Part shown: in pieces, positions 2,762 to 35,562 of the stretch
Layout: every line of letters begins with the position of its first letter
Position numbering within the stretch: position 1 is the stretch's first letter
Sequence record: MK295204
DNA length: 64,000 bases
Origin: Shigella phage vB_SdyM_006
Reading direction: 5' to 3' (one strand)
Position numbers and translations under genes: made by a program
Notes under the pieces: generated by a model
Told to the model about the DNA's origin: nothing
The model's database searches: none
Seen by the model: only the letters and a program-made list of their open reading frames with translations

Positions 2762-3810
2762 TATGAGTTAACCGATTCAACATGTAGGCTTAAGGCATAT
2801 TTAAATAATATTTCTTTTTCGTCTTCAGACAAGCCTTCTAATGCATTGATATATTCTCGAATGATAGTTTCTAAACTTTCAACAACAATATCATCAGAGT
2901 CATCAACTTCAGGTCCATCTGTAGCTACTTTAGAAACAACCTTTAATGAATGGACTACGGATTCTAATTTAGATTCAAATTCTGTAAATTTATCATCCAT
3001 TTTATTAACAATAACACGAACAGCGATATCTTTATAATCTTCAGGGTTAATATCTGAAGGATATTGAACACGTTGGTGCCACATTGTTTTATTTTGAACA
3101 AACTCTACACTAGAATCTTTAGGGTTAAATATCCATACACCTCTAGGGTCATCCTCATCGCCAGCAGTAATTGAATATGGAGTTCCAATATATAATACAT
3201 TACCAGCTTCAGAAATCGTATGGAAGTGGCCTGAATAGACTTTATCATATTTTTTAAGAAAGTCTGGTTCTAGTCCATGGGATTTCATTCCTTTATAAAA
3301 ATAAAATCCGTTTAATTCCCAATGTCCAATACATATTTTAGCATTAGACTTTTTAATATGGTCTAAAATCTCTTTAGTGTTTTCATCGCACATCCAAGGA
3401 ATTAAATCAATTAATGTTCCTTCTATTTCGACTGTTGTTGGTTTATCATAAATTGTTATATTATCATGTTTTGATAATAATTCCGAAACCGAGTTAGGAT
3501 GGATTTTATTTTTGAAATGTAAATCATGATTACCAATAATAACATGCAAGTTAATACCAGCTTCTTTAAGTAAATCCACATTTTCTCTACTAAATTCCAT
3601 TGTGACATGTGTAATGGCTTTACGTACATCGAACCAATCACCAAATTGAATAACTTCTGTGATTTTGTTTTGTTTACAAATTTCGATAATTTGTTTTATT
3701 GAATCTCTTTGGATATTTTGAATCCAAGGGTCGTCTTTAGCGACCCCATAATGTAAATCACCTACAAATAAAATCATCATAATATCCTTGTCAATTAAAA
3801 TTGATACCAC
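2761..3810 (-). CDS. 47: Recombination endonuclease subunit gp47 (SbcD/Mre11-like phosphoesterase)
   Basis: Calcineurin-like phosphoesterase motifs (GDLHYG, GDWFD, GNHD); true start probably internal Met (MILFVGDLHYG, near 3777). Confidence 0.9.
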   Translation of the reverse strand: MVSILIDKDIMMILFVGDLHYGVAKDDPWIQNIQRDSIKQIIEICKQNKITEVIQFGDWFDVRKAITHVTMEFSRENVDLLKEAGINLHVIIGNHDLHFKNKIHPNSVSELLSKHDNITIYDKPTTVEIEGTLIDLIPWMCDENTKEILDHIKKSNAKICIGHWELNGFYFYKGMKSHGLEPDFLKKYDKVYSGHFHTISEAGNVLYIGTPYSITAGDEDDPRGVWIFNPKDSSVEFVQNKTMWHQRVQYPSDINPEDYKDIAVRVIVNKMDDKFTEFESKLESVVHSLKVVSKVATDGPEVDDSDDIVVESLETIIREYINALEGLSEDEKEILFKYALSLHVESVNS

Positions 3811-3995
3811 TTTTTAATTCGTGCATTATCAGCAATAACTTCTTCTTTACCAGAGAAATTATAAGGAACCTGTGTAGATATCATCTTTGCACTTTTTTTA
3901 TTAAGCTTTACAAAATAATCATTGCCAAATTCAAATAAAGAATCAGGCTTAAGTTTTTTAAATGTCGTCTTTAGTATCATTTTTAGCATCTTCAA
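3795..3995 (-). CDS. Hypothetical protein
   Basis: 66-aa ORF in early-gene orientation between 55 and 47. Confidence 0.4.
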   Translation of the reverse strand: MKMLKMILKTTFKKLKPDSLFEFGNDYFVKLNKKSAKMISTQVPYNFSGKEEVIADNARIKKWYQF

Positions 3996-4308
3996 TTATT
4001 TTAAATAAGGCTTTTCTTGATGTTTCATAACAATAGTCAAGAACTGCTTTATCTGTTGATTGTTTATAAATTTTACGAAGTTTACCTAAAGCATAAACAA
4101 ATTGTTCTTTATTACCTTTAAGTAAAGAATCTTCATAAAGTCCTTTTAAACGTTTAATTTCTCGTCGTTCTTTACGAAGAATAACGTCGGCCCGTTTTTT
4201 AGCTTCTTCAAAAAGTTTTTCTTCATAGTCTTTAACTTCAGGGTCTAATTGAGATAAAGAATCAATTTTTATTTCTTGATTAGTCATTATATTTCCATTC
4301 AAAATCAA
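3958..4308 (-). CDS. Hypothetical protein
   Basis: 116-aa charged/helical ORF; no recognised motif. Confidence 0.45.
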   Translation of the reverse strand: MILNGNIMTNQEIKIDSLSQLDPEVKDYEEKLFEEAKKRADVILRKERREIKRLKGLYEDSLLKGNKEQFVYALGKLRKIYKQSTDKAVLDYCYETSRKALFKIIEDAKNDTKDDI

Positions 4309-4483
4309 AATAAATATTAAAATCCTCTATAGTATAGAAATAAGAAAACTCTCCCTGTTCAACAGAGATTGTCTCATCATATACATTAGTCGGATCAATT
4401 AAAACTGGTATATTGTACTTCTCTTTTAATAGAAGCTTAATAAGATATGGTAATGCATTTATATCGTTATATTCTTCAATCAT
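4280..4483 (-). CDS. Hypothetical protein (start trimmed to internal Met)
   Basis: ORF track gives 4280-4588, overlapping gp55 by 113 nt; internal Met gives a short overlap typical of this genome. Confidence 0.35.
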
Positions 4484-5027
4484 CGGGGTTAGATTGAGTT
4501 TCTGCTTTAAGTAATTCATAAAAATCATCCAATGTCGGTCCTGTATCATCAGCCTTTTTTGACCCGCTAGATTTAACAGAACTTTCATAAGAGTTTAATT
4601 TATCATATATGTCTTGTATAAACGTTTCGTCTGCAATTTGAGATAAATCTGTATCAAATTCATCATAAACGTTATGGACAAAGTAGCTATATTTTATTGC
4701 CATTTCTTTTCGTTCTTTTTTAATACGCTGAACAAATGCATTAAAACAAGCCTTAGTGATGTAAGCATGTGGATTATTATATTTCTTCTCATCAAAGCCA
4801 TATAAACCTTTTATAGTAGCTTCAATACCGTCCCAATACATTTCTTGTTTCCAATCAGGTGTATATCCAGAAAAGTTATAACGATAGGAAAGGCCTTCAG
4901 CTATAAGCATAATAGCGCGTCCAATAGAATCAGGGATTTTTACCTGATAACCAGCATCATAACAGTCTTGTTTCCACTTACAAATTTCTTTATATAATTC
5001 TTTATTGTTAATATAATTATTCATCAA
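4476..5027 (-). CDS. 55: Late-transcription sigma factor gp55
   Basis: 183 aa (T4 gp55 is 185 aa); sequence resembles T4 gp55; T4-like position. Confidence 0.85.
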
Positions 5028-5040
5028 GAACCTCCAAGTT

Positions 5041-5235
5041 AATTATATACAAAAATAATATTTTGCATTTGCAATCAAGGAGCTGCGCTCCTTGATATTT
5101 TTATTATTTTATTAAGTTCTTTATATATTATATATAACTATTAAGTAATAAATTAGTAACTCTAGTAAATTAATTTATTAAAAGTCTAGTATATTCTATA
5201 TAACTATTAAGTAATAAATTAATAACTCTATGTTA
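5041..5235. repeat. Intergenic repeat module copy A: GC-clamp stem-loop (GGAGC-TGC-GCTCC) plus two copies of an AT-rich promoter-like unit
   Basis: Core unit tatataactattaagtaataaatta occurs twice here and twice at 40474-40664; the stem-loop plus T-run is shared by both loci. Confidence 0.7.
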
Positions 5236-6657
5236 CTATTTTCTGGTATGTTCTATCCAGTCTTTTACTATTTTTTGATCTTCTATATTATCAGGGTCTA
5301 ATTTTCTACCTAGTTTTCTTAGAAGATACATATAACGATATTTTTCTTTAGTAGTCATTTCGTATTGTTTTTGAAATGATAATCGCTTTCTTGTTTGTTT
5401 TGCTTTAGGAACTTCTAACATGTAATCAGTACAGATAGTAGCATTTTTAAAATACTTATCTTTTATATACTTTGCTAATCTCATATCAGGAACAAATAAA
5501 TTAACTTTTTTATTGCTTTTATTGACCCGGATATTAGTTCTTGCACATAATTGAAAAGCCGGTTCAAGATATTTTGATACTATATAAGCGTTAACTAATT
5601 CATCTTCTTCTAACCCTGCTGATATAGCAAGTTCTTTTAGTATAGGAATTTGCCATGGTAATGGGTTAAAGCTAAACATGACTACAACGTTCCTATAATC
5701 CGTATAGGAGTTTAATCCATGTGGGTTATATGGAACTTCAAGTCCTTTATTAAAACGCGCCCTGTATGAATTCCTGGTGTATATAAATGGCTCATCTCCA
5801 ATTAACCCGTCAAGAATATTTTTGATTCTGGAATAATTGGTTAAACCATCAATTTCTTTATCAGCATTATGTTTAGACCAAGAATTTTCAAACATAACGT
5901 TTATTTGGATTCTTGAAGTATTAGAATATTCTTTAAATACGAGTTTATCTTCTAGAGGTGATTTAACAAAATCCCATTTGTTAAAATATTTTAGAATTTT
6001 ACCAGTAAAAGTGTCTTCTATATTTGCTGCAGAAATAGTTACTTTATCAAAAACTTCCCAATCTTTACTAGACACGTCATTAATAAAATAGCATGTTGCG
6101 CCAGATTCCGTTTTAGATATTTTTGTTGGAATACCTTGTAATAAAGCTTTGTATAAAGGGAGTAAACTCACACAGATATCATCTAATTGGTTAATACCCT
6201 GTAATGCAAGTTCTTCTATTTCTTCTTTATATTTTTCATCTAAAATAAGATCTGATAATCCATCACTTATAGGAAGACAATATTTAAGGATTTCTTCTAA
6301 ATTATGAGAAAACGTAAATTTATTAAATGACACTAATTCTGGGACTTCATCAATATATAGACTAAATCCTTTGAACTTACTAAAATCCGTAATTGATAAC
6401 AATGCAGAATGAGTTATAAACAAAACATCTGCTTGTGTTTCTTCAATAGCTTTATTAACAGACTTTGAGCCAAGTTTATTGTCAGAATCAATTAATACCC
6501 CTTGTCCGCCCAACGAGCAAAAATAATCAAAGGATTGCTTAGACAAAAGCCTCGATATCGAGGCTATAATTGATTTTTCTTTTTTATTGACAATATTTTC
6601 TACAATGGCTTTAGTCTTTCCAGCAGCTGGAATTGCTTTTAAGACTTCAATTTTCAT
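5236..6657 (-). CDS. P-loop NTPase of unknown function
   Basis: 473 aa; Walker A-like AIPAAGKTKA near N-terminus and Walker B-like LYIDEV about 90 aa later; large C-terminal region with no recognised motif. Confidence 0.6.
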   Translation of the reverse strand: MKIEVLKAIPAAGKTKAIVENIVNKKEKSIIASISRLLSKQSFDYFCSLGGQGVLIDSDNKLGSKSVNKAIEETQADVLFITHSALLSITDFSKFKGFSLYIDEVPELVSFNKFTFSHNLEEILKYCLPISDGLSDLILDEKYKEEIEELALQGINQLDDICVSLLPLYKALLQGIPTKISKTESGATCYFINDVSSKDWEVFDKVTISAANIEDTFTGKILKYFNKWDFVKSPLEDKLVFKEYSNTSRIQINVMFENSWSKHNADKEIDGLTNYSRIKNILDGLIGDEPFIYTRNSYRARFNKGLEVPYNPHGLNSYTDYRNVVVMFSFNPLPWQIPILKELAISAGLEEDELVNAYIVSKYLEPAFQLCARTNIRVNKSNKKVNLFVPDMRLAKYIKDKYFKNATICTDYMLEVPKAKQTRKRLSFQKQYEMTTKEKYRYMYLLRKLGRKLDPDNIEDQKIVKDWIEHTRK

Positions 6658-28639: not shown

Positions 28640-29127
28640 AATTTTTTCCTACATTGCATAATATATTCTTCAAGAAAAGTTAATTTATTTTCCAGAACGT
28701 CTAAATATTCTTTTTCAAAATTAAAAACAAATTCAATAAGGTCAACATTAGTATTAAAGCATTTTCTATAAGATTCAAAAGATGAAAAATAATGTGCATT
28801 ATCTACGCCAACAAAAAAAGTAATGGCTATATCATCCTTTTTAAAACCAAATAACACATTTGATGATTTTAATGTATCTTCAATTTGGTCAAACTGTATA
28901 ATTGTTTTATTTTTGTCGTCTTTATAAGAAGTAGAATAACACCATATGGATTTAAATGGGTACACTATATCATTTAAAGAACAGTGATTCAACAAGATAT
29001 TTTTTATAGCATTAGCTTTAGCTTCAGGCATATTAAATAGTGGAATCACATAAGAAGTATCGCTTAGTTTTGAATATTTAGAAATAGGGTCTACTAATCT
29101 TAGTACTTCATTAAGCCATTGTTGCAT
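28636..29127 (-). CDS. Hypothetical protein
   Basis: 163-aa ORF. Confidence 0.5.
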   Translation of the reverse strand: MQQWLNEVLRLVDPISKYSKLSDTSYVIPLFNMPEAKANAIKNILLNHCSLNDIVYPFKSIWCYSTSYKDDKNKTIIQFDQIEDTLKSSNVLFGFKKDDIAITFFVGVDNAHYFSSFESYRKCFNTNVDLIEFVFNFEKEYLDVLENKLTFLEEYIMQCRKKL

Positions 29128-29177
29128 TATAACCTCCTAGTAAAATGGGCCTTTCGGCCCATTAATCAGTTTACTGA

Positions 29178-29774
29178 TTATTTGTTAAAAGTATCAACAT
29201 ATAATTCGAGTTCAGACATATTAACCGAAACATTAGAGCTTTCTGTAAATGTGTCAACTTCTGTAATAATAGTATCAACATCTACTAATACATGGTCTGT
29301 AGAAGCCATTACATCTTCAGGTAATTTGATACCTAATGCATCAGTTTCTTTGTTCAATTTAATAACTTCTAAATTAGCTTTAATTTCTTCTAATTTATCA
29401 GCAAGTTCAACAACTTTTTCTGCGATCGTAATAATAGATTTTTTACGATTTTCAACTTCGGTTTCTAAAGCTTCACCCAATTTTTTATATTGCAAAGCAG
29501 CGATAAAATATGCTTTTGGCACGGCTTGTTCTTTGCTTTTTAAGAGACGAATATGGTCTTCTTTTAGTTTACTGTTTTTAAAGTGGTCTTGAGCCTTGGC
29601 TTTTAAGTGCTCAATGCTTTGAGTTGCAGTAATTTCAGCATGACGTAAACTGTCAATTTTATTGATGATTAACGTCGCAGCTTGGGTATAACGTTCTTCA
29701 GCAGATAAATTGCTTTTGAAGAAAGAAGTTAATTTAGTAGATACGAAGTTTTTAGCAGTTTTTAATAAGCTCAT
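29178..29774 (-). CDS. Coiled-coil protein
   Basis: 198 aa, heptad-rich helical N-terminal two-thirds and acidic C-terminus; the plus-strand 29119-29592 ORF is its low-complexity antisense. Confidence 0.5.
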   Translation of the reverse strand: MSLLKTAKNFVSTKLTSFFKSNLSAEERYTQAATLIINKIDSLRHAEITATQSIEHLKAKAQDHFKNSKLKEDHIRLLKSKEQAVPKAYFIAALQYKKLGEALETEVENRKKSIITIAEKVVELADKLEEIKANLEVIKLNKETDALGIKLPEDVMASTDHVLVDVDTIITEVDTFTESSNVSVNMSELELYVDTFNK

Positions 29775-30025
29775 TTTATTTCCTTACATGTATTAGTTTC
29801 AAAATCAACAATAATATTTTTACGTTCAATGCCAAGATTAATTAATTTAGAAATACATTGACCTTGGATTTTTTGGTCTTCTAAACCTTTAGAAACACTT
29901 TTAGATAATGCACTCCATGAAAAACAAATAACTATTAAAATAACACATCCAATTAAATATTTCATGATATACTCCATTTGTTTTGATGTGTCTATAGTAT
30001 TATAGATTTTTTGTGTTGTAAACAT
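29771..30025 (-). CDS. Small secreted protein
   Basis: 84 aa; internal Met followed by signal-peptide-like MKYLIGCVILIVICFSWSALS. Confidence 0.4.
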   Translation of the reverse strand: MFTTQKIYNTIDTSKQMEYIMKYLIGCVILIVICFSWSALSKSVSKGLEDQKIQGQCISKLINLGIERKNIIVDFETNTCKEIK

Positions 30026-30031
30026 TTATTT

Positions 30032-30487
30032 TTAATTTTTTGAAATTAATTTTCGACATTGGTTTATGTATGCTTTGCGCTGGTTGTCCTCTAATTTTTC
30101 TAGATACGCAGCTTTTTGATCTTTAAAATTAACTAATCTTTCACTTATCTTATTAAATGTATCAGATTTAAGATAAAATACAGATCTTTTAGATTTAAAT
30201 TCAAAATAAGCTATAACAGTTCTTGACACATTTTCTCCTGGCTTCACTTGTGTCCTAGTACTTAATGGAAAATTCAAGTACATTGCAGCTGTGTATTCAG
30301 CCAAGAAGAAAGTCACTTTATCGACGTTATATAAGAGCCAGGACAATATATCATCTTCATTGATATATCTAAATTCAGATTCAATTAAAAGCCTATACCG
30401 AAGATCTGAGACTTGACATTTGCCAGCTTCATAAGAAGGCTCAAAACTTTCTGTGATGACAGAAAGTTCATCTAAATTATAATTCAT
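30032..30487 (-). CDS. Paralog family member 3 of 3
   Basis: 151 aa; shares the Y-x-A-x-Y-L-NFPL core, F-Y-L-x-x-D and a C-terminal Y-I-x-x-C-R-K/N-x-I motif with the two upstream ORFs. Confidence 0.5.
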   Translation of the reverse strand: MNYNLDELSVITESFEPSYEAGKCQVSDLRYRLLIESEFRYINEDDILSWLLYNVDKVTFFLAEYTAAMYLNFPLSTRTQVKPGENVSRTVIAYFEFKSKRSVFYLKSDTFNKISERLVNFKDQKAAYLEKLEDNQRKAYINQCRKLISKN

Positions 30488-30950
30488 TTAGAGATTCCTT
30501 TATTTTATTTCTACATGATTCAATATAAGCTAAACGTTCAGAAGTTTTGATGGCTTCAATAAATTTGGTTCTTTTATTTTTAAAATCGTCAAACTCAGAA
30601 TATACACTATTGAAAAAATCAGCATCTAAATATACTACGTATTTTTTGTCGTCAAGCATAAATTCAGCTATAACCATACTAGTATATTTTGGGGCTTTTG
30701 AGCCAAGATATATTTTATTTAAACCTTTTAATGGAAAATTCCCGTATGTAGCATACTCGTAGTCAGCGCAATAAAATCTAACAGAACTTACATTATGGTA
30801 CATCCAATTGACAAAGTACTTAGTATACTGTTTATTTTTTCTACGTAAATCAGCAACTAAATATCCTGCTTCTTCTTCATCAAATAATGCAATAAAGTCA
30901 AAATTATTTTTCATGGGTATGACCTTTAATTTTACGACGACATTTTTCAA
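30477..30950 (-). CDS. Paralog family member 2 of 3
   Basis: 157 aa; same motifs (NFPL, YVVYLDAD, YIESCRNKIK). Confidence 0.5.
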   Translation of the reverse strand: MKNVVVKLKVIPMKNNFDFIALFDEEEAGYLVADLRRKNKQYTKYFVNWMYHNVSSVRFYCADYEYATYGNFPLKGLNKIYLGSKAPKYTSMVIAEFMLDDKKYVVYLDADFFNSVYSEFDDFKNKRTKFIEAIKTSERLAYIESCRNKIKESLNEL

Positions 30951-31374
30951 TATAGAAGTCTAATTCATTGGTATACTTAGAATTTACATAAATTTGTTTA
31001 TTTTTACTAAAACCTGAAATACCTTTTAAAACACCTTTGGCTTGATTATAGTCTATAAAGAACACATGTTCTTTATTATCGTACATAAATCTTAAAGCAA
31101 AAGTATCTTTATAGATATTAGATTCTTTTGTAACGATAGAATTAGTAGATTTATCAAGTGGCAAATTACATGCAAGAGCACAAGTATACTCACACTCATA
31201 TAATGTCACATAATTTGTATTAGTATACAAAAAATCTAGAATCTCATCAGAGGTCCAAGCTTTCTCAATATCATTTCCTAGAACACGTAGTTTCCAAAAA
31301 GTGGATTGACGTATATCAGCCCAGATAACATTATTATCTTTGCCTGCTTCAGGTCCTTTAAAAATATCAATCAT
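30904..31374 (-). CDS. Paralog family member 1 of 3
   Basis: 156 aa; same family (CNLPL, VFFIDYN, YIEKCRRKIK). Confidence 0.5.
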   Translation of the reverse strand: MIDIFKGPEAGKDNNVIWADIRQSTFWKLRVLGNDIEKAWTSDEILDFLYTNTNYVTLYECEYTCALACNLPLDKSTNSIVTKESNIYKDTFALRFMYDNKEHVFFIDYNQAKGVLKGISGFSKNKQIYVNSKYTNELDFYIEKCRRKIKGHTHEK

Positions 31375-31664
31375 TATATCCTCTCACAAAAAGCCCAATT
31401 AGCATGATAAACTGAAGCGCCTTTAGTATCATTCATGCACACTAAGTCTACAGGAGACACCACTCTATATAAAACAGGTTCTCCACCTAATGAACGCGCA
31501 GCTCTTCCGGCATAAATTTTAGCCAAACCTAAATCTTCAGTAAAGAAAACTCGGTCTAAATTTTTCTTACGTCCTTTTTCAGAAATAGTCTCAGTTGTTT
31601 CTGGTGGAAGTAACATATGTTCAATACCACATACAGAAGAAGAACCATGATAAAAAGTTTTCAT
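31374..31664 (-). CDS. Possible Arr/Tpt1-like mini ADP-ribosyltransferase
   Basis: 96 aa; N-terminal FYHGSS and downstream R-V-F-F-T ... YRVV-P resemble the rifampin ADP-ribosyltransferase (Arr) core as I remember it; not verified. Confidence 0.4.
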   Translation of the reverse strand: MKTFYHGSSSVCGIEHMLLPPETTETISEKGRKKNLDRVFFTEDLGLAKIYAGRAARSLGGEPVLYRVVSPVDLVCMNDTKGASVYHANWAFCERI

Positions 31665-31732
31665 TATAGACTCCGTTTTTAAATTATGTAGCTATTATAC
31701 ACACAATTTTTAATTTGTACATACTATAAACG

Positions 31733-31754
31733 AAAAAAGGAACCAAAAGGTTCC
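31733..31754 (-). terminator. Hairpin GGAACC-UUUU-GGUUCC plus U6 on minus strand
   Basis: Read directly; after the stop of the 31762-32178 ORF. Confidence 0.45.
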
Positions 31755-31761
31755 TTTAATT

Positions 31762-32178
31762 TTAGATACATCCACCACAAGAACTATGTCGCCAATCTTC
31801 TTCGTTAATATGTGGATAAAGAGCATATAAGATTTTTTCGATATCTTTAAATCCATGTCTTTTTAAAGACGAAACTAATGAGTTAGTATCGTGTTTCAAC
31901 ATTAATTGGACCCAACTTTCTGGACTTAACCCTGCTGTATAAGAATCCCATTCTTCAGACCAATTATCGTCAAAACGCCAGGTGTCATAAGATTTACGTG
32001 TATCAAATTCTTCATTACCTAAACCAGTTAGGCTAATTCCATCGATACTAATATTCCATTGTCCAAAGCATAGCGTTGGATAAGACCCAGTCCACTCTAC
32101 AAAAATTTTCATGTAATTCCTTATAAACATACCACAATTGCAGTTAAAAATATAAAAACCATAACAGGAACATACCAA
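31762..32178 (-). CDS. Hypothetical cysteine-rich protein
   Basis: 138-aa ORF (real start may be the internal MKIFVEW); Trp/acidic-rich with C-terminal SSCGGCI. Confidence 0.4.
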   Translation of the reverse strand: MVCSCYGFYIFNCNCGMFIRNYMKIFVEWTGSYPTLCFGQWNISIDGISLTGLGNEEFDTRKSYDTWRFDDNWSEEWDSYTAGLSPESWVQLMLKHDTNSLVSSLKRHGFKDIEKILYALYPHINEEDWRHSSCGGCI

Positions 32179-32230
32179 ATGGTTTTTATAGCATCATTAG
32201 GTTTTTCTGAGTCAAACATGATAATCTCGA

Positions 32231-32584
32231 TTAATAATAAATAGTATTCCCAACATAAATTTTGTTTGGATTTGTAATATTATTTAAAATTTGTAAATAT
32301 TCAACAGACACGCCAAGGTTCATAGCAATTTCGCTCAGTGTGTCATTAAATCGTACTGTATATGAAAATAAATTTGAATCACGATTAATTGACGCAGTTA
32401 AAAAATCAACAGAATTCAGAACTTCAAAAGTCATCGCTTTGTCGTTGCCACTATTAAAGCCAATACCACGCTTAAGAATAGAAACGATAGTTGTACCTTC
32501 ACCTGTTTCAGAAGCACCGATGATGTTACGTGTATCAACCATAAAACGTGATAAATCATCTGCAGAAGTTAAAATAATTTTCAT
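32231..32584 (-). CDS. LysM-domain protein
   Basis: 117 aa; C-terminal YTVRFNDTLSEIAMNLGVSVEYLQILNNITNPNKIYVGNTIYY fits the LysM consensus. Confidence 0.55.
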   Translation of the reverse strand: MKIILTSADDLSRFMVDTRNIIGASETGEGTTIVSILKRGIGFNSGNDKAMTFEVLNSVDFLTASINRDSNLFSYTVRFNDTLSEIAMNLGVSVEYLQILNNITNPNKIYVGNTIYY

Positions 32585-32593
32585 AGTATTTCC

Positions 32594-32986
32594 TTACCAA
32601 GAATAAGCAAAACCTGCACCAAGAGTAGAATTAGATTTGTTATCAAATGCACCAGACATTTTTAATGTTACATTTGTGTTTTCTGGATGAGCACCAAAAG
32701 CGACAGCTACAGCTGAACCAGATTTATAACCACCAACACCTAAGCCTAAAGAAATGGTTTTAGAAAAATCTAATGGAACATTATTCATAGCAGAAGCAGA
32801 AGCAAATCCAGCTTTTACTTGGTCCATTTTTCCGTCAACATCTTTAATATATCTATTCCAGGATTCATTTACAGTTCCTTCGTGAAAAGTATGATTAAGA
32901 TTTGGACTAATCCAATTATTATCTGATGCAATTGAACCAGAACTCAAAACTAATAATGAAGCCATAAAAATAAATTTTAAATTCAT
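32594..32986 (-). CDS. Small outer-membrane protein with YadA-like (trimeric autotransporter) C-terminal anchor
   Basis: 130 aa; signal peptide MNLKFIFMASLLVLSSGSIA, then GLGVGGYKSGSAVAVAFG ... NVTLKMSGAF ... GAGFAYSW ending in a C-terminal aromatic, resembling the YadA anchor beta-strand pattern. Confidence 0.55.
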   Translation of the reverse strand: MNLKFIFMASLLVLSSGSIASDNNWISPNLNHTFHEGTVNESWNRYIKDVDGKMDQVKAGFASASAMNNVPLDFSKTISLGLGVGGYKSGSAVAVAFGAHPENTNVTLKMSGAFDNKSNSTLGAGFAYSW

Positions 32987-33127
32987 AATTTTTTCCTTGT
33001 TTGTTTAAAGTAGAAACACTATATCATAGATTATATAAAAGCTAAATTTCTTTTATTTTAAAAACAAAAAAGGTCCAACATTTCTGTGGACCTTAAAAGC
33101 AACTTCTTTTATTATTTATTTTAAATT

Positions 33128-33204
33128 TGGTACACCTACGGGAATTCGAATCCCGGTTACACGCTCGAAAGGCGTGGGTCCTAGACCACTAGACGATAGG
33201 TGCA
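33128..33204 (-). tRNA. tRNA-Glu (anticodon UUC)
   Basis: Manual fold: acceptor GCACCUA/UAGGUGU, anticodon stem CACGC with loop CUUUCGA, T-loop UUCGAAU, encoded CCA. Confidence 0.7.
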
Positions 33205-33210
33205 TTAAAA

Positions 33211-33302
33211 TGGAGGAGAGTATGGGATTCGAACCCATGGAACAGCGTAACTGTCCAACGGTTTTCAAGACCGTCTCAATAATCCATCTCTGACAACTCT
33301 CC
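33211..33302 (-). tRNA. tRNA-Ser (anticodon UGA), class II
   Basis: Perfect acceptor GGAGAGU/ACUCUCC, anticodon loop CUUGAAA, long variable arm, T-loop UUCGAAU, CCA. Confidence 0.8.
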
Positions 33303-33309
33303 AATATAA

Positions 33310-33627
33310 TTAAAACAGTAGACTATAAACAGTACCTTTACAATCTATAGGTTGTGTTTTTGAATATTCTTTAAATAGATTTAAATAACCAATTTCTTCA
33401 GGTTCCCATTGTCCTTCTAAACCATAACATGAACAATGTGAGCCGTTAACTTCCCAAAATATATCATTACTATCTTTGAAGATTACAGTAGCATACCCAG
33501 AATAATCTTCATAATCGTAATATGCTAAAATGATTTCTTTGTCATTAAGTGAATCCATAGGGATTTGGAATTCATGACAGATGTCTTCTTTTGAAGTAAA
33601 CAGTTCCATAAACACATTAGTTTTCAT
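33310..33627 (-). CDS. Hypothetical protein between tRNA genes
   Basis: ORF track gives 33310-33720, but the N-terminal part overlaps tRNA-Asp; trimmed to internal Met (about 105 aa). Confidence 0.4.
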   Translation of the reverse strand: MKTNVFMELFTSKEDICHEFQIPMDSLNDKEIILAYYDYEDYSGYATVIFKDSNDIFWEVNGSHCSCYGLEGQWEPEEIGYLNLFKEYSKTQPIDCKGTVYSLLF

Positions 33628-33650
33628 ATCAATATCCTCAAAATTAATTT

Positions 33651-33726
33651 TGGCGGTCTTACCGAGAATCGAACTCGGTGCTGTTCCGTGACAGGGAACT
33701 ATGTTAACCAGGTACACCATAAGACC
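33651..33726 (-). tRNA. tRNA-Asp (anticodon GUC)
   Basis: Acceptor GGUCUUA/UAAGACC, anticodon stem GUUCC with loop CUGUCAC, T-loop UUCGAUU, CCA. Confidence 0.8.
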
Positions 33727-33756
33727 TTAAAAATGTACCCATCCGGCTTTCCAGTC

Positions 33757-33857
33757 TGGTGAAGGGTTGTCACCTCTAGTTTAAACCTGCTAGTCAAGTA
33801 ATAATTGCATATCGTCCAATTATCAAAACCGTCTAGGTTATATTACACCACTTCCTA
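33757..33857 (-). ncRNA. Possible small stable RNA in the tRNA cluster (not foldable as a canonical tRNA)
   Basis: About 100 nt between tRNA-Asp and tRNA-Gly, begins with tgg (CCA-like 3' end on minus) and contains local hairpins; T4 carries small stable RNAs in the equivalent position. Confidence 0.2.
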
Positions 33858-33919
33858 GAATACCGTCTAAGCGGACTTGATCGACGTAGATTACACCATA
33901 TACGTCTGATTGTGGAATT

Positions 33920-33993
33920 TGGAGCGATCTACGGGTATCGAACCCGTATCTTCTGGGTGGAAACCAGAAATAATAGCCATTATACTAAGATCG
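33920..33993 (-). tRNA. tRNA-Gly (anticodon UCC)
   Basis: Perfect acceptor GCGAUCU/AGAUCGC, anticodon stem UCUGG with loop UUUCCAC, T-loop UUCGAUA, CCA. Confidence 0.8.
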
Positions 33994-34615
33994 CATATTT
34001 ATTAATAAATCTTCTTGCTTGGGTATGACTTAATCCTATATGTTTAGCAAATTTATTTAAGTTACCTCTTATTGAAATATCAAATGATTTTAATATTTCT
34101 AATCTATAATTAATTTCGTCTTTTGACAATGTAGAGGCATTATTAATAGAAATTTTGTTTTTAGATATATCCGAATGTCTCTTATTTTTAAAACCAAACG
34201 AATTTTTCTTTTTGCTAAAATCATATAATCCGAGTCTAAGTCTTTTCTTAAATGTATTAACTTGTTTACTTATAGTTAATTTAGATTTTGGCAATGAATT
34301 TATATAATCCCAACCACCTTCACCACCAACTTTTAAATTATATGTATTTTTGCTTTTAACAAATTTTTCTGTAACTATTTTGGCTTCATGTATAAACATG
34401 TCATACTTATTTTTATGAAATTTTAAAATAGTTTTTTCAAAATTTTCTTTGCCATATTTTTCTATGGCTTTTTTCAAAATCTTACCTGAACCAAAATATC
34501 CATCTTCTAAATCTTTGGTTTTATGAACACCTATATAAATTTTATTATTTATTTTATTTTTAATTTTGTATGTATAATAAAACATTATAGCCTTATTTAT
34601 CTTTTGGTACTCCAT
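33980..34615 (-). CDS. GIY-YIG homing endonuclease (seg-like) inside the tRNA cluster
   Basis: 211 aa; N-terminal YTYKIKNKINNKIYIGVHKT ... GYFGSG is a GIY-YIG motif; lysine-rich C-terminal DNA-binding region. Confidence 0.75.
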   Translation of the reverse strand: MEYQKINKAIMFYYTYKIKNKINNKIYIGVHKTKDLEDGYFGSGKILKKAIEKYGKENFEKTILKFHKNKYDMFIHEAKIVTEKFVKSKNTYNLKVGGEGGWDYINSLPKSKLTISKQVNTFKKRLRLGLYDFSKKKNSFGFKNKRHSDISKNKISINNASTLSKDEINYRLEILKSFDISIRGNLNKFAKHIGLSHTQARRFINKYAILV

Positions 34616-34779
34616 TCTTTATTAGTTGCTTTATTAACAGCAGTAGAATAAGAATTTTTAATATCTTCTGTAACAGAATAGCCAGTTAACATAGTAGAAA
34701 TTAAAATAACATATCCAAGCATTAATAAAATACAAGATAAAAATCCTGCAATAATAAGAATTGTACCTAAAGTAGTCAT
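34597..34779 (-). CDS. Small membrane protein (trimmed from the 34597-34890 ORF, which overlaps a tRNA)
   Basis: Internal Met yields about 60 aa with one long hydrophobic helix. Confidence 0.35.
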   Translation of the reverse strand: MTTLGTILIIAGFLSCILLMLGYVILISTMLTGYSVTEDIKNSYSTAVNKATNKEWSTKR

Positions 34780-34798
34780 ATTGTTCTCACAAATTATT

Positions 34799-34875
34799 TG
34801 GTGACCCACCATGGAATCGAACCATGCTCCAACGCTTATGAGGCGTTCGCTTTCAACCAGTAAGCTAGAGGGCCT
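34799..34875 (-). tRNA. tRNA with anticodon CAU (Met or Ile2-type)
   Basis: Anticodon stem AACGC/GCGUU with loop CUCAUAA, T-arm CAUGG-UUCGAUU-CCAUG, CCA; acceptor has one mismatch. Confidence 0.65.
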
Positions 34876-34882
34876 TGCAATT

Positions 34883-34966
34883 GGTGGCACCGGGTAGACT
34901 CGAACTACCGAAGGCCGAAGCCTGGAGATTTACAGTCTCCTGTCATTGCCGCTAGACTACGATGCC
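34883..34966 (-). tRNA. tRNA-Tyr (anticodon GUA), class II
   Basis: Anticodon stem GGAGA/UCUCC with loop CUGUAAA, long variable arm, acceptor GGCAUCG/CGGUGCC, CCA. Confidence 0.7.
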
Positions 34967-35011
34967 TTTTCTTATCAATAACGACTAAAAATAATCGTTA
35001 TTAATCAGAAT

Positions 35012-35088
35012 TGGTACACACTACTGGATTCGAACCAGTGACCTACGGTTTAGAAGACCGTTGCTCTATCCATCTGAGCTAAGCATGC
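35012..35088 (-). tRNA. tRNA-Arg (anticodon UCU)
   Basis: Anticodon stem ACGGU/ACCGU with loop CUUCUAA, T-loop UUCGAAU, CCA; acceptor stem has three G-U pairs. Confidence 0.6.
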
Positions 35089-35089
35089 A

Positions 35090-35380
35090 TTATAAGTACT
35101 GTTTAATCAGTTCTTCGTTATTTTTAAAAAGAATAAAAATATTATCACGAACTTCAGTATCTGAGATATGCCATTTCATAGCATCAATTAAAATGTCTTT
35201 TGGGATCATATTATATAAATTATTTAGTAAAGCAATATTATTTATATCAATATCAACTTCAAATAATTCAAAAATACAACACGAAATAGAATCATAAAAA
35301 TCTTTAATGTCTATTTCATACTTAGACAAATTATTTATAAATTCTGTTTTAGCTTGTTCTGGATTATGTGCTTTAAACAT
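35090..35380 (-). CDS. Hypothetical protein
   Basis: 96-aa ORF between tRNA-Arg and tRNA-Trp. Confidence 0.45.
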   Translation of the reverse strand: MFKAHNPEQAKTEFINNLSKYEIDIKDFYDSISCCIFELFEVDIDINNIALLNNLYNMIPKDILIDAMKWHISDTEVRDNIFILFKNNEELIKQYL

Positions 35381-35402
35381 TTTTATTCCTATTATTCTAA
35401 AA

Positions 35403-35477
35403 TGGCAGGCTCTGTAGGAATCGAACCCACGTCTTCGGATTTGGAATCCGGTATTCTACCGACTGAACTAAGAACCT
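35403..35477 (-). tRNA. tRNA-Trp (anticodon CCA)
   Basis: Anticodon loop UUCCAAA, D-arm UAGUUCAGUCGGUAGAAU, T-loop UUCGAUU, CCA. Confidence 0.7.
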
Positions 35478-35478
35478 T

Positions 35479-35562
35479 TGGCGGGCAGTGTAGGATTCGA
35501 ACCTACGTCGTCAAATGACACGGATTAACAGTCCGCTGCTTAATCCACTCAGCCAACTACCC
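35479..35562 (-). tRNA. tRNA-Asn-like (anticodon GUU) with an unusually long variable arm
   Basis: Anticodon arm CGGACUGUUAAUCCG is nearly identical to E. coli tRNA-Asn, but the variable region is about 13 nt (GUCAUUUGACGAC), giving 84 nt. Confidence 0.55.

Follow-up and report, generated by a model that had tools for sequence, protein, structure and literature searches.

What does an open reading frame (ORF) of 96 residues, lying ahead of three tandem paralogs in Shigella phage vB_SdyM_006, encode, and on what would its product act? The ORF is located in a 64,000-nucleotide stretch of the phage DNA (sequence record MK295204; the window is the whole of this stretch). The original prediction, made from the letters of the window, took it for a minimal ADP-ribosyltransferase (ART) resembling the rifampin ADP-ribosyltransferases (Arr) or Tpt1 and leading an operon of paralogs. 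From the analysis below, the ORF very probably encodes a tiny NAD-using ART related to Arr.

31374..31664, minus strand: ORF of 96 residues with an ATG start, predicted mini ADP-ribosyltransferase (mini-ART) of the p0068-like family, phrog_2110

The product has the sequence MKTFYHGSSSVCGIEHMLLPPETTETISEKGRKKNLDRVFFTEDLGLAKIYAGRAARSLGGEPVLYRVVSPVDLVCMNDTKGASVYHANWAFCERI. All of the residues that had been quoted in favour of an ART are found in it, namely MKTFYHGSSS, R38-V-F-F-T42 and Y66-R-V-V-S-P71.

Fold and family of the 96-residue protein

The ORF is a real gene, with homology far beyond chance. Homologs are found by tblastn in 609 phage records at 60–99% identity (nearly all at 60–80%), the hosts of these phages including Escherichia, Klebsiella, Acinetobacter, Aeromonas, Enterobacter, Vibrio and Proteus, and the protein matches phrog_2110 with an E-value of 2e-54. 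Positions 29000–34000 of the window are 96.7% identical to Proteus phage phiP4-3 (Bragavirus, Straboviridae), in which the gene is annotated as 'hypothetical protein'; some homologs in GenBank and UniRef are already named 'ADP-ribosyl transferase'. The domain is rare in cellular genomes: one peptide pattern located 5 loci in 185,579 species genomes, and at least 3 of these are apparent phage contigs.

The AlphaFold2 model, calculated from 33 homologs, has a pLDDT of 91.8 and a pTM of 0.83. It is a confident model and shows the split β-sheet fold of ARTs. Foldseek ranks Arr first (probability 1.00, TMq 0.62) and KptA second (0.98); many ART toxins, PARPs, DarT and RES toxins are also among the structural matches.

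With HMMER, 1.84 billion representatives were searched exhaustively, which gave 223 relatives. The Pfam model of Arr-ms (PF12120) is matched by 12 of 35 family members on their own (best E-value 1.2e-7), and the domains that lie inside larger proteins reach 25.6–31.5 bits against a gathering cutoff of 25. Two profiles were used, A1 from the close T4-like homologs and A2 from a broader, more divergent set. A1 gave only a chance match to periostin in the PDB; the divergent set was needed because A1 reached only 32% probability against Arr. The best PDB sequence match of A2 is Arr-ms (E-value 0.0096). The predicted link to Arr holds at the profile level, as the family profile aligns with Arr-2 and pEC-IMP Arr over 73 columns with an hhalign probability of 94.2% and an E-value of 1.1e-7. 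The match of A2 to Escherichia coli KptA (residues 97–156 of 184) is topologically congruent but not significant, with an hhalign probability of 6%.

The three independent lines (structure, transitive homology and profile comparison) agree on an ART, and we assign the fold and the family membership with high confidence. Of the relationships proposed at the outset, that to Arr is borne out by profile and by structure and that to KptA by structure, but the protein is neither a true Arr nor a Tpt1. It is homologous to the N-terminal two-thirds of Arr, and its nearest structural neighbours are Arr and the NAD lobe of Tpt1/KptA.

The protein is 75% identical to ZZ1p0068 of Acinetobacter phage ZZ1. 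Among the viral ARTs, Iyer, Burroughs et al. (2022) count a 'p0068-like' family as one of the commonest. They assign it to the H-Y-[EDQ] clade, and for enterophages they predict that it and Dmd make up a toxin–antitoxin pair (PMC9503650). The name very probably comes from ZZ1p0068. We take the two families to be the same since the ART–Dmd arrangement is seen in phages HX01 and WG01, and they are alike in size and in their distribution among T4-like myoviruses. They differ in context, as the window gene is not adjacent to Dmd and instead heads a triplet of Proteus-phage paralogs. The window gene is an orthologue within a family that had been predicted by computation and already has a name. Papers on NARP3, DarTG1/AdfN, HIDEN-SEQ and Klebsiella phage anti-defence looked promising; they are unrelated to this family.

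Proposed active-site residues and the known ADP-ribosyltransferases

Conservation was measured on 118 near-full-length representatives, each less than 50% identical to the others. H6, G7 and S/T8 are conserved at 100%, F40 at 96% (Tyr in the other 4%), and T42 and Y51 at 97%. E29 and R32 are also conserved at 97%, K34 and N35 are near-universal, and P20, V39, A48, A52, G60 and G61 are further universal or near-universal positions. H6-G7-S8 on the first strand, F40-x-T42 on the second and Y51 are proposed to form the NAD pocket. The alignment with Arr-ms pairs H6 with H19, F40 with Y49 and T42 with T51; we take H19, Y49 and D84 of Arr-ms to be its catalytic His, Tyr and Asp. In diphtheria toxin, two tyrosines of a Y-X10-Y motif stack on the nicotinamide. 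F40 and Y51, about 11 residues apart, would be predicted to make this stacking interaction here.

The resemblance to the catalytic core of Arr is therefore partial: HG[ST] and the aromatic pair are conserved, but the Tyr of Arr is a Phe and no equivalent of the Asp of Arr or of the classical Glu is conserved. The alignments with Arr stop before the Asp. After residue 62, that is, on the C-terminal strands, no acidic or amide residue is conserved among the 118 representatives. E94 occurs in 13% of the family, though it is invariant among the T4-like members; D79 occurs in 28%, and the position of N78 is N, S or Q in 78%. In this alignment the family pattern is H-[F/Y]-hydrophobic, which is nearer to Tpt1 than to the H-Y-[EDQ] clade, with its conserved Glu/Asp/Gln on the fifth strand, and poorly matches the published placement. 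Among the charged residues only E29 and R32 are universal; they belong to E29-x-G31-R32-x-K34-N35, in a family-specific loop between the first two strands (consensus SEKGRKKNLD). This loop has the lowest confidence of the model (pLDDT 74–82), which would suit a loop that binds the substrate.

A protein with such a site could be a non-catalytic binder, a sponge that holds NAD+ or immune signals derived from ADP-ribose in the ART cleft. The missing catalytic acid on the C-terminal strands would be in line with this, as would the very small size of the protein and its abundance in phages, and sponges of ADP-ribose-derived signals are an established phage strategy. The signature of the nicotinamide pocket (HG[ST], F/Y on the second strand and Y51 on the helix) is, however, kept at 96–100% and would be superfluous for a binder of ADP-ribose derivatives. 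Arr and Tpt1 are active enzymes that lack the classical Glu, and the domain is found among enzymatic domains in polyvalent proteins. We consider a sponge improbable, and the mini-ART is probably catalytically active.

Arr (PF12120; PDB 2HW2, 9IAF and 9IBA) is the closest family by sequence, and true Arr-family ARTs are reported in some actinophages (PMC9503650), so a genuine Arr that inactivates rifamycin-type antibiotics, and in this way protects the host RNA polymerase needed by the phage, has to be weighed. The Arr proteins examined have 137–150 residues, about 45 more than the 96 found here, and the match is limited to residues 15–89 of Arr-2 (Pfam positions 1–67 of 99). The invariant EDDPNLT.KKFPGNPT segment and the C-terminal helices of Arr have no counterpart in the mini-ART, the loop of the mini-ART is absent from Arr, the Arr Tyr is replaced and the catalytic Asp cannot be aligned. 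Unlike some of its relatives, the window protein has no match to the Arr-ms model and is below its gathering threshold. A genuine Arr is very improbable.

Tpt1/KptA (PDB 9LD3, 7KW9 and 8TFI) consists of two lobes. The NAD-binding lobe is structurally similar to the mini-ART; the N-terminal RNA-binding lobe, which holds three of the four essential Arg-His-Arg-Arg residues, is absent from it. This single 96-residue domain, with a profile match to E. coli KptA at only 6%, would be a poor candidate for an RNA 2'-phosphotransferase in phage RNA repair, and we regard that role as highly unlikely. The mini-ART lies near rnlB in phage RB16, but this proximity is shared T4-like synteny. A mini-ART also lies near an Rnl2-type ligase on a contig of 'Flagellimonas marina' (NZ_JBHSCL010000010.1, 178,077 bp), probably a phage genome co-assembled with the isolate, its length being that of a T4-like genome. 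We rejected it as independent evidence of a link to RNA repair because the contig shares the genes flanking the ART with two T4-like phage contigs (L045 and L046).

Fused domains and the proposed acceptor

In the wider family the mini-ART domain is also found inside larger, polyvalent proteins of the phage/plasmid type. It occurs in large proteins with ART-PolyVal, with NUDIX in two proteins (P0170 and P0196), with a lambda-type portal and a 2H/Acb1-like phosphoesterase, with GNAT and Toprim (the architecture of P0183), and with DUF7178. Two contigs from IMG/VR (L027 and L028, 460 kb and 230 kb) encode, at 3498–5306, a jumbo-phage protein of 602 residues with a DNA-primase (Toprim) region and a C-terminal mini-ART, and this C-terminal domain passes the Pfam Arr-ms cutoff. 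According to Iyer et al., polyvalent-protein architectures contain effectors that are carried in the phage head for delivery into the host (PMC9503650). Architectures of this type mark the mini-ART domain as an effector. The fusions hint no more than weakly at nucleotide or nucleic-acid chemistry.

We tentatively favour a non-protein acceptor, either a phosphate or a hydroxyl group on a nucleotide, on RNA or on DNA. This preference has four reasons: in the closest relatives the group modified is a hydroxyl (Arr) or a phosphate (Tpt1) and not a protein side chain; the catalytic acid (Glu/Asp) of protein ARTs is missing; the basic loop is conserved; and primase, 2H and NUDIX domains are among the fusion partners of the domain. 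In the mechanism that we propose, the ART, first of six genes, would be transcribed early, from a promoter of its own. The protein would need no partner and would be an NAD+-dependent mono-ADP-ribosyltransferase, with a target that is conserved across very different hosts. The acceptor, a nucleotide or the end of an RNA or DNA, would be positioned by E29 and R32. The modification would favour infection by host takeover or counter-defence.

The acceptor could also be a protein, one with a role in defence or a conserved one of the host (RNA polymerase, the translation apparatus). Phage ARTs of this kind are known. AcrIF11, an anti-CRISPR mono-ART (PDB 6KYF), modifies a protein, Cas8f; it has no detectable sequence relationship to the mini-ART. 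Alt, ModA and ModB of T4 are, like the mini-ART, phage-encoded, NAD-dependent and early-acting ARTs of T4-like phages. They are about 2–7 times larger, are encoded by separate genes and are unrelated to the mini-ART in sequence. They belong to the R-S-E clade (PMC9503650). The C-terminal strands, the usual site of the catalytic residue of protein ARTs, have no conserved Glu, Asp or Gln in the mini-ART family, and the best relatives by sequence and by structure, Arr and Tpt1, do not modify proteins. We therefore regard a protein acceptor as rather unlikely.

Leaving the class of acceptor aside, the full description of the window protein as a single-domain p0068-like mini-ART that acts as a stand-alone, early-expressed, NAD+-dependent effector has, in our judgement, even chances of being correct. 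Several observations weigh against it. On its own, the window protein has no match in Pfam (E-value up to 1), NCBIfam, PADLOC or the PDB sequences, and the link to Arr requires a family profile or a structure model. With Phe in place of the Arr Tyr and no conserved third catalytic residue, the protein could have little activity, an unusual one or none. The fusions of the domain are of a kind common to polyvalent proteins in general and do not identify the substrate, and a pI of 7.7 with a net charge of about +1 is not suggestive of a strong nucleic-acid binder. The promoter (listed below) is assigned from its position, because promoter-like sites in this AT-rich region are no more numerous than in shuffled sequence. 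Full-text searches of the literature found no experimental characterisation of the p0068-like family.

Transcription unit, neighbouring genes and the proposed Dmd partnership

The ART gene is preceded and followed by these features, given in the order of transcription.

31736..31757, minus strand: intrinsic terminator of the upstream unit (terminator scan), 9-bp stem, AAAGGAACC-TTTT-GGTTCCTTT followed by a T-run
31694..31721, minus strand: candidate sigma-70/T4-early-like promoter TGTACA-16-TATAAT, 10/12 matches
31671..31674, minus strand: ribosome-binding site GGAG, read from the sequence, 6 nt before the ATG of the ART
30904..31374, minus strand: paralog 1, 156 residues, phrog_16787, its ATG overlapping the stop codon of the ART by 1 nt
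30477..30914, minus strand: paralog 2, 145 residues from the ATG at 30914 (the ORF list extends it to a TTG at 30950), phrog_16787
30032..30487, minus strand: paralog 3, 151 residues, phrog_16787
29771..30025, minus strand: ORF of 84 residues with a hydrophobic segment, member of the ART-led unit, homolog of phiP43_153
29178..29774, minus strand: ORF of 198 residues, phrog_1203, of unknown function, last gene of the ART-led unit
29142..29161, minus strand: terminator-like hairpin TGGGCC-GAAA-GGCCCA followed by TTTT (read from the sequence), end of the six-gene unit

The claim that the ART leads a transcription unit agrees with this arrangement, as the terminator, the promoter-like site and GGAG follow one another on the minus strand ahead of the gene. 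The promoter candidate is the top promoter-like site of the minus strand in 29000–32300 and sits in the sole intergenic gap, between the terminator and the start of the ART. The hairpin at 29142..29161 was missed by the terminator scanner because its T-run has only four T; in Proteus phage Pm5461 a terminator is annotated at the matching position. From the upstream signals and the downstream hairpin, the ART would be the first of six genes in a unit of about 2.5 kb. Its coupling to the first paralog is real: the TAA of the ART (31376..31374) and the ATG of the next ORF share base 31374 in TAATG.

The three tandem ORFs are true paralogs, with pairwise identities of 26–30% (BLASTP E-values 9e-13 to 8e-21), and each matches phrog_16787 with an E-value of 3e-46 or better. 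Library and structure searches gave no recognisable family or fold for them. They are confined to Bragavirus phages of Proteus; the window and phiP4-3 each have three of them, and Pm5461 has two. The paralog operon of the original prediction thus exists in this phage, but it is found in Proteus phages only and is not a conserved partner of the ART. The phrog_16787 array varies in copy number, and Pm5461 carries an additional ORF of 81 residues between the promoter and the ART gene.

Across phages, the ART ORF was located in 58 loci, and an abutting downstream protein was found in 54 of them. The two are mostly separated by −4 to +12 nt. This downstream slot is occupied in the 54 loci by no fewer than 16 unrelated families: a hydrophobic peptide of 55–76 residues (transmembrane) in 12, Dmd in 11, the Proteus paralogs in 4 and a protein of 79–81 residues in 4, in addition to Cys-rich peptides, a protein of 124 residues, a GIY-YIG-like protein and several singletons. 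Despite the changing neighbours, the ART is 62–78% identical across genera. Its wider location also varies. In HX01 (Mosigvirus) and WG01 (Dhakavirus) it lies between genes 41 and 61, and in ZZ1 (Zedzedvirus) it lies upstream of gene 61, for the primase, at a distance of a few genes. RB16 has it close to srd and rnlB, Aeromonas and Serratia phages have it close to inh, hoc and gene 24, and in the window it is located between a tRNA cluster and a nudix/lysozyme region.

These data bear on the proposal that the ART is the type II toxin of a phage toxin–antitoxin pair, in which case the paralogs would be the antitoxin or immunity proteins in this phage. Such a pair has been proposed for p0068-ART and Dmd (PMC9503650), and Dmd does adjoin the ART in HX01 (4-nt gene overlap) and WG01 (no gap). 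The overlap of stop and start codons in the window, and the small ORF that tightly abuts the ART in most loci, would also fit. An antitoxin that binds its toxin would, however, be expected to co-vary with it, and an ART that is conserved while the gene next to it keeps changing speaks against a neighbour that is its cognate antitoxin or immunity protein. The 64-kb window contains no Dmd homolog, and the three paralogs, which occur in Proteus phages only and have no recognisable fold, show no similarity to Dmd. We rejected a Dmd-like nature for them and for the other downstream peptides alike, as no similarity was found. Dmd itself has a known independent target, RnlA/LsoA. The ART–Dmd partnership does not generalise, and a toxin–antitoxin pair is an unlikely explanation. 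The ART fits better as a stand-alone gene in hyperplastic regions.

ADP-ribosylation is central to the conflict between phages and bacteria, as seen for DarT, CmdT, Alt/Mod, AcrIF11, and the NAD-depleting defences and the counter-measures to them. The mini-ART is present in hundreds of T4-like phages and is unusually conserved for a small accessory gene. If its acceptor were identified, the known activities of phage effectors would gain a new one, and the minimal size of an ART and the residues that are truly required would be defined. The window gene itself is an ordinary orthologue of a family that had been recognised computationally. New here are the quantified link to Arr by sequence and structure, the lack of conservation of the classical third catalytic residue together with the conservation of E29 and R32, and the finding that the partnership with Dmd is not general.

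Other features were noted on the far side of the upstream terminator. A LysM-domain protein of 117 residues (32231–32584) is encoded directly downstream of a protein of 130 residues (32594–32986, minus strand) that has a signal-peptide-like N-terminus and a membrane anchor of the YadA-type trimeric autotransporters (Pfam E-value 2e-12). The latter is predicted to be a phage-encoded anchor in the outer membrane, and it is unusually small for one. Nine tRNA genes (Glu, Ser, Asp, Gly, Met, Tyr, Arg, Trp and Asn) are interleaved with small ORFs at 33128–35562 on the minus strand. Inside this cluster is an ORF of 211 residues (33980–34615, minus strand) for a GIY-YIG (Seg/I-TevI-like) homing endonuclease, the 3' end of which overlaps tRNA-Gly (33920–33994). 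It matches the catalytic domain of I-TevI (1mk0, E-value 0.003), and phage ORFs annotated as homing endonucleases are at most 48% identical to it over most of its length. Compared with phiP4-3, the closest sequenced relative, the endonuclease ORF appears to have been inserted, since the match to that phage at the nucleotide level stops at about 33727. The corresponding region of phiP4-3 is annotated with a tRNA for Pro and without those for Trp and Asn, so the tRNA set differs between close relatives.
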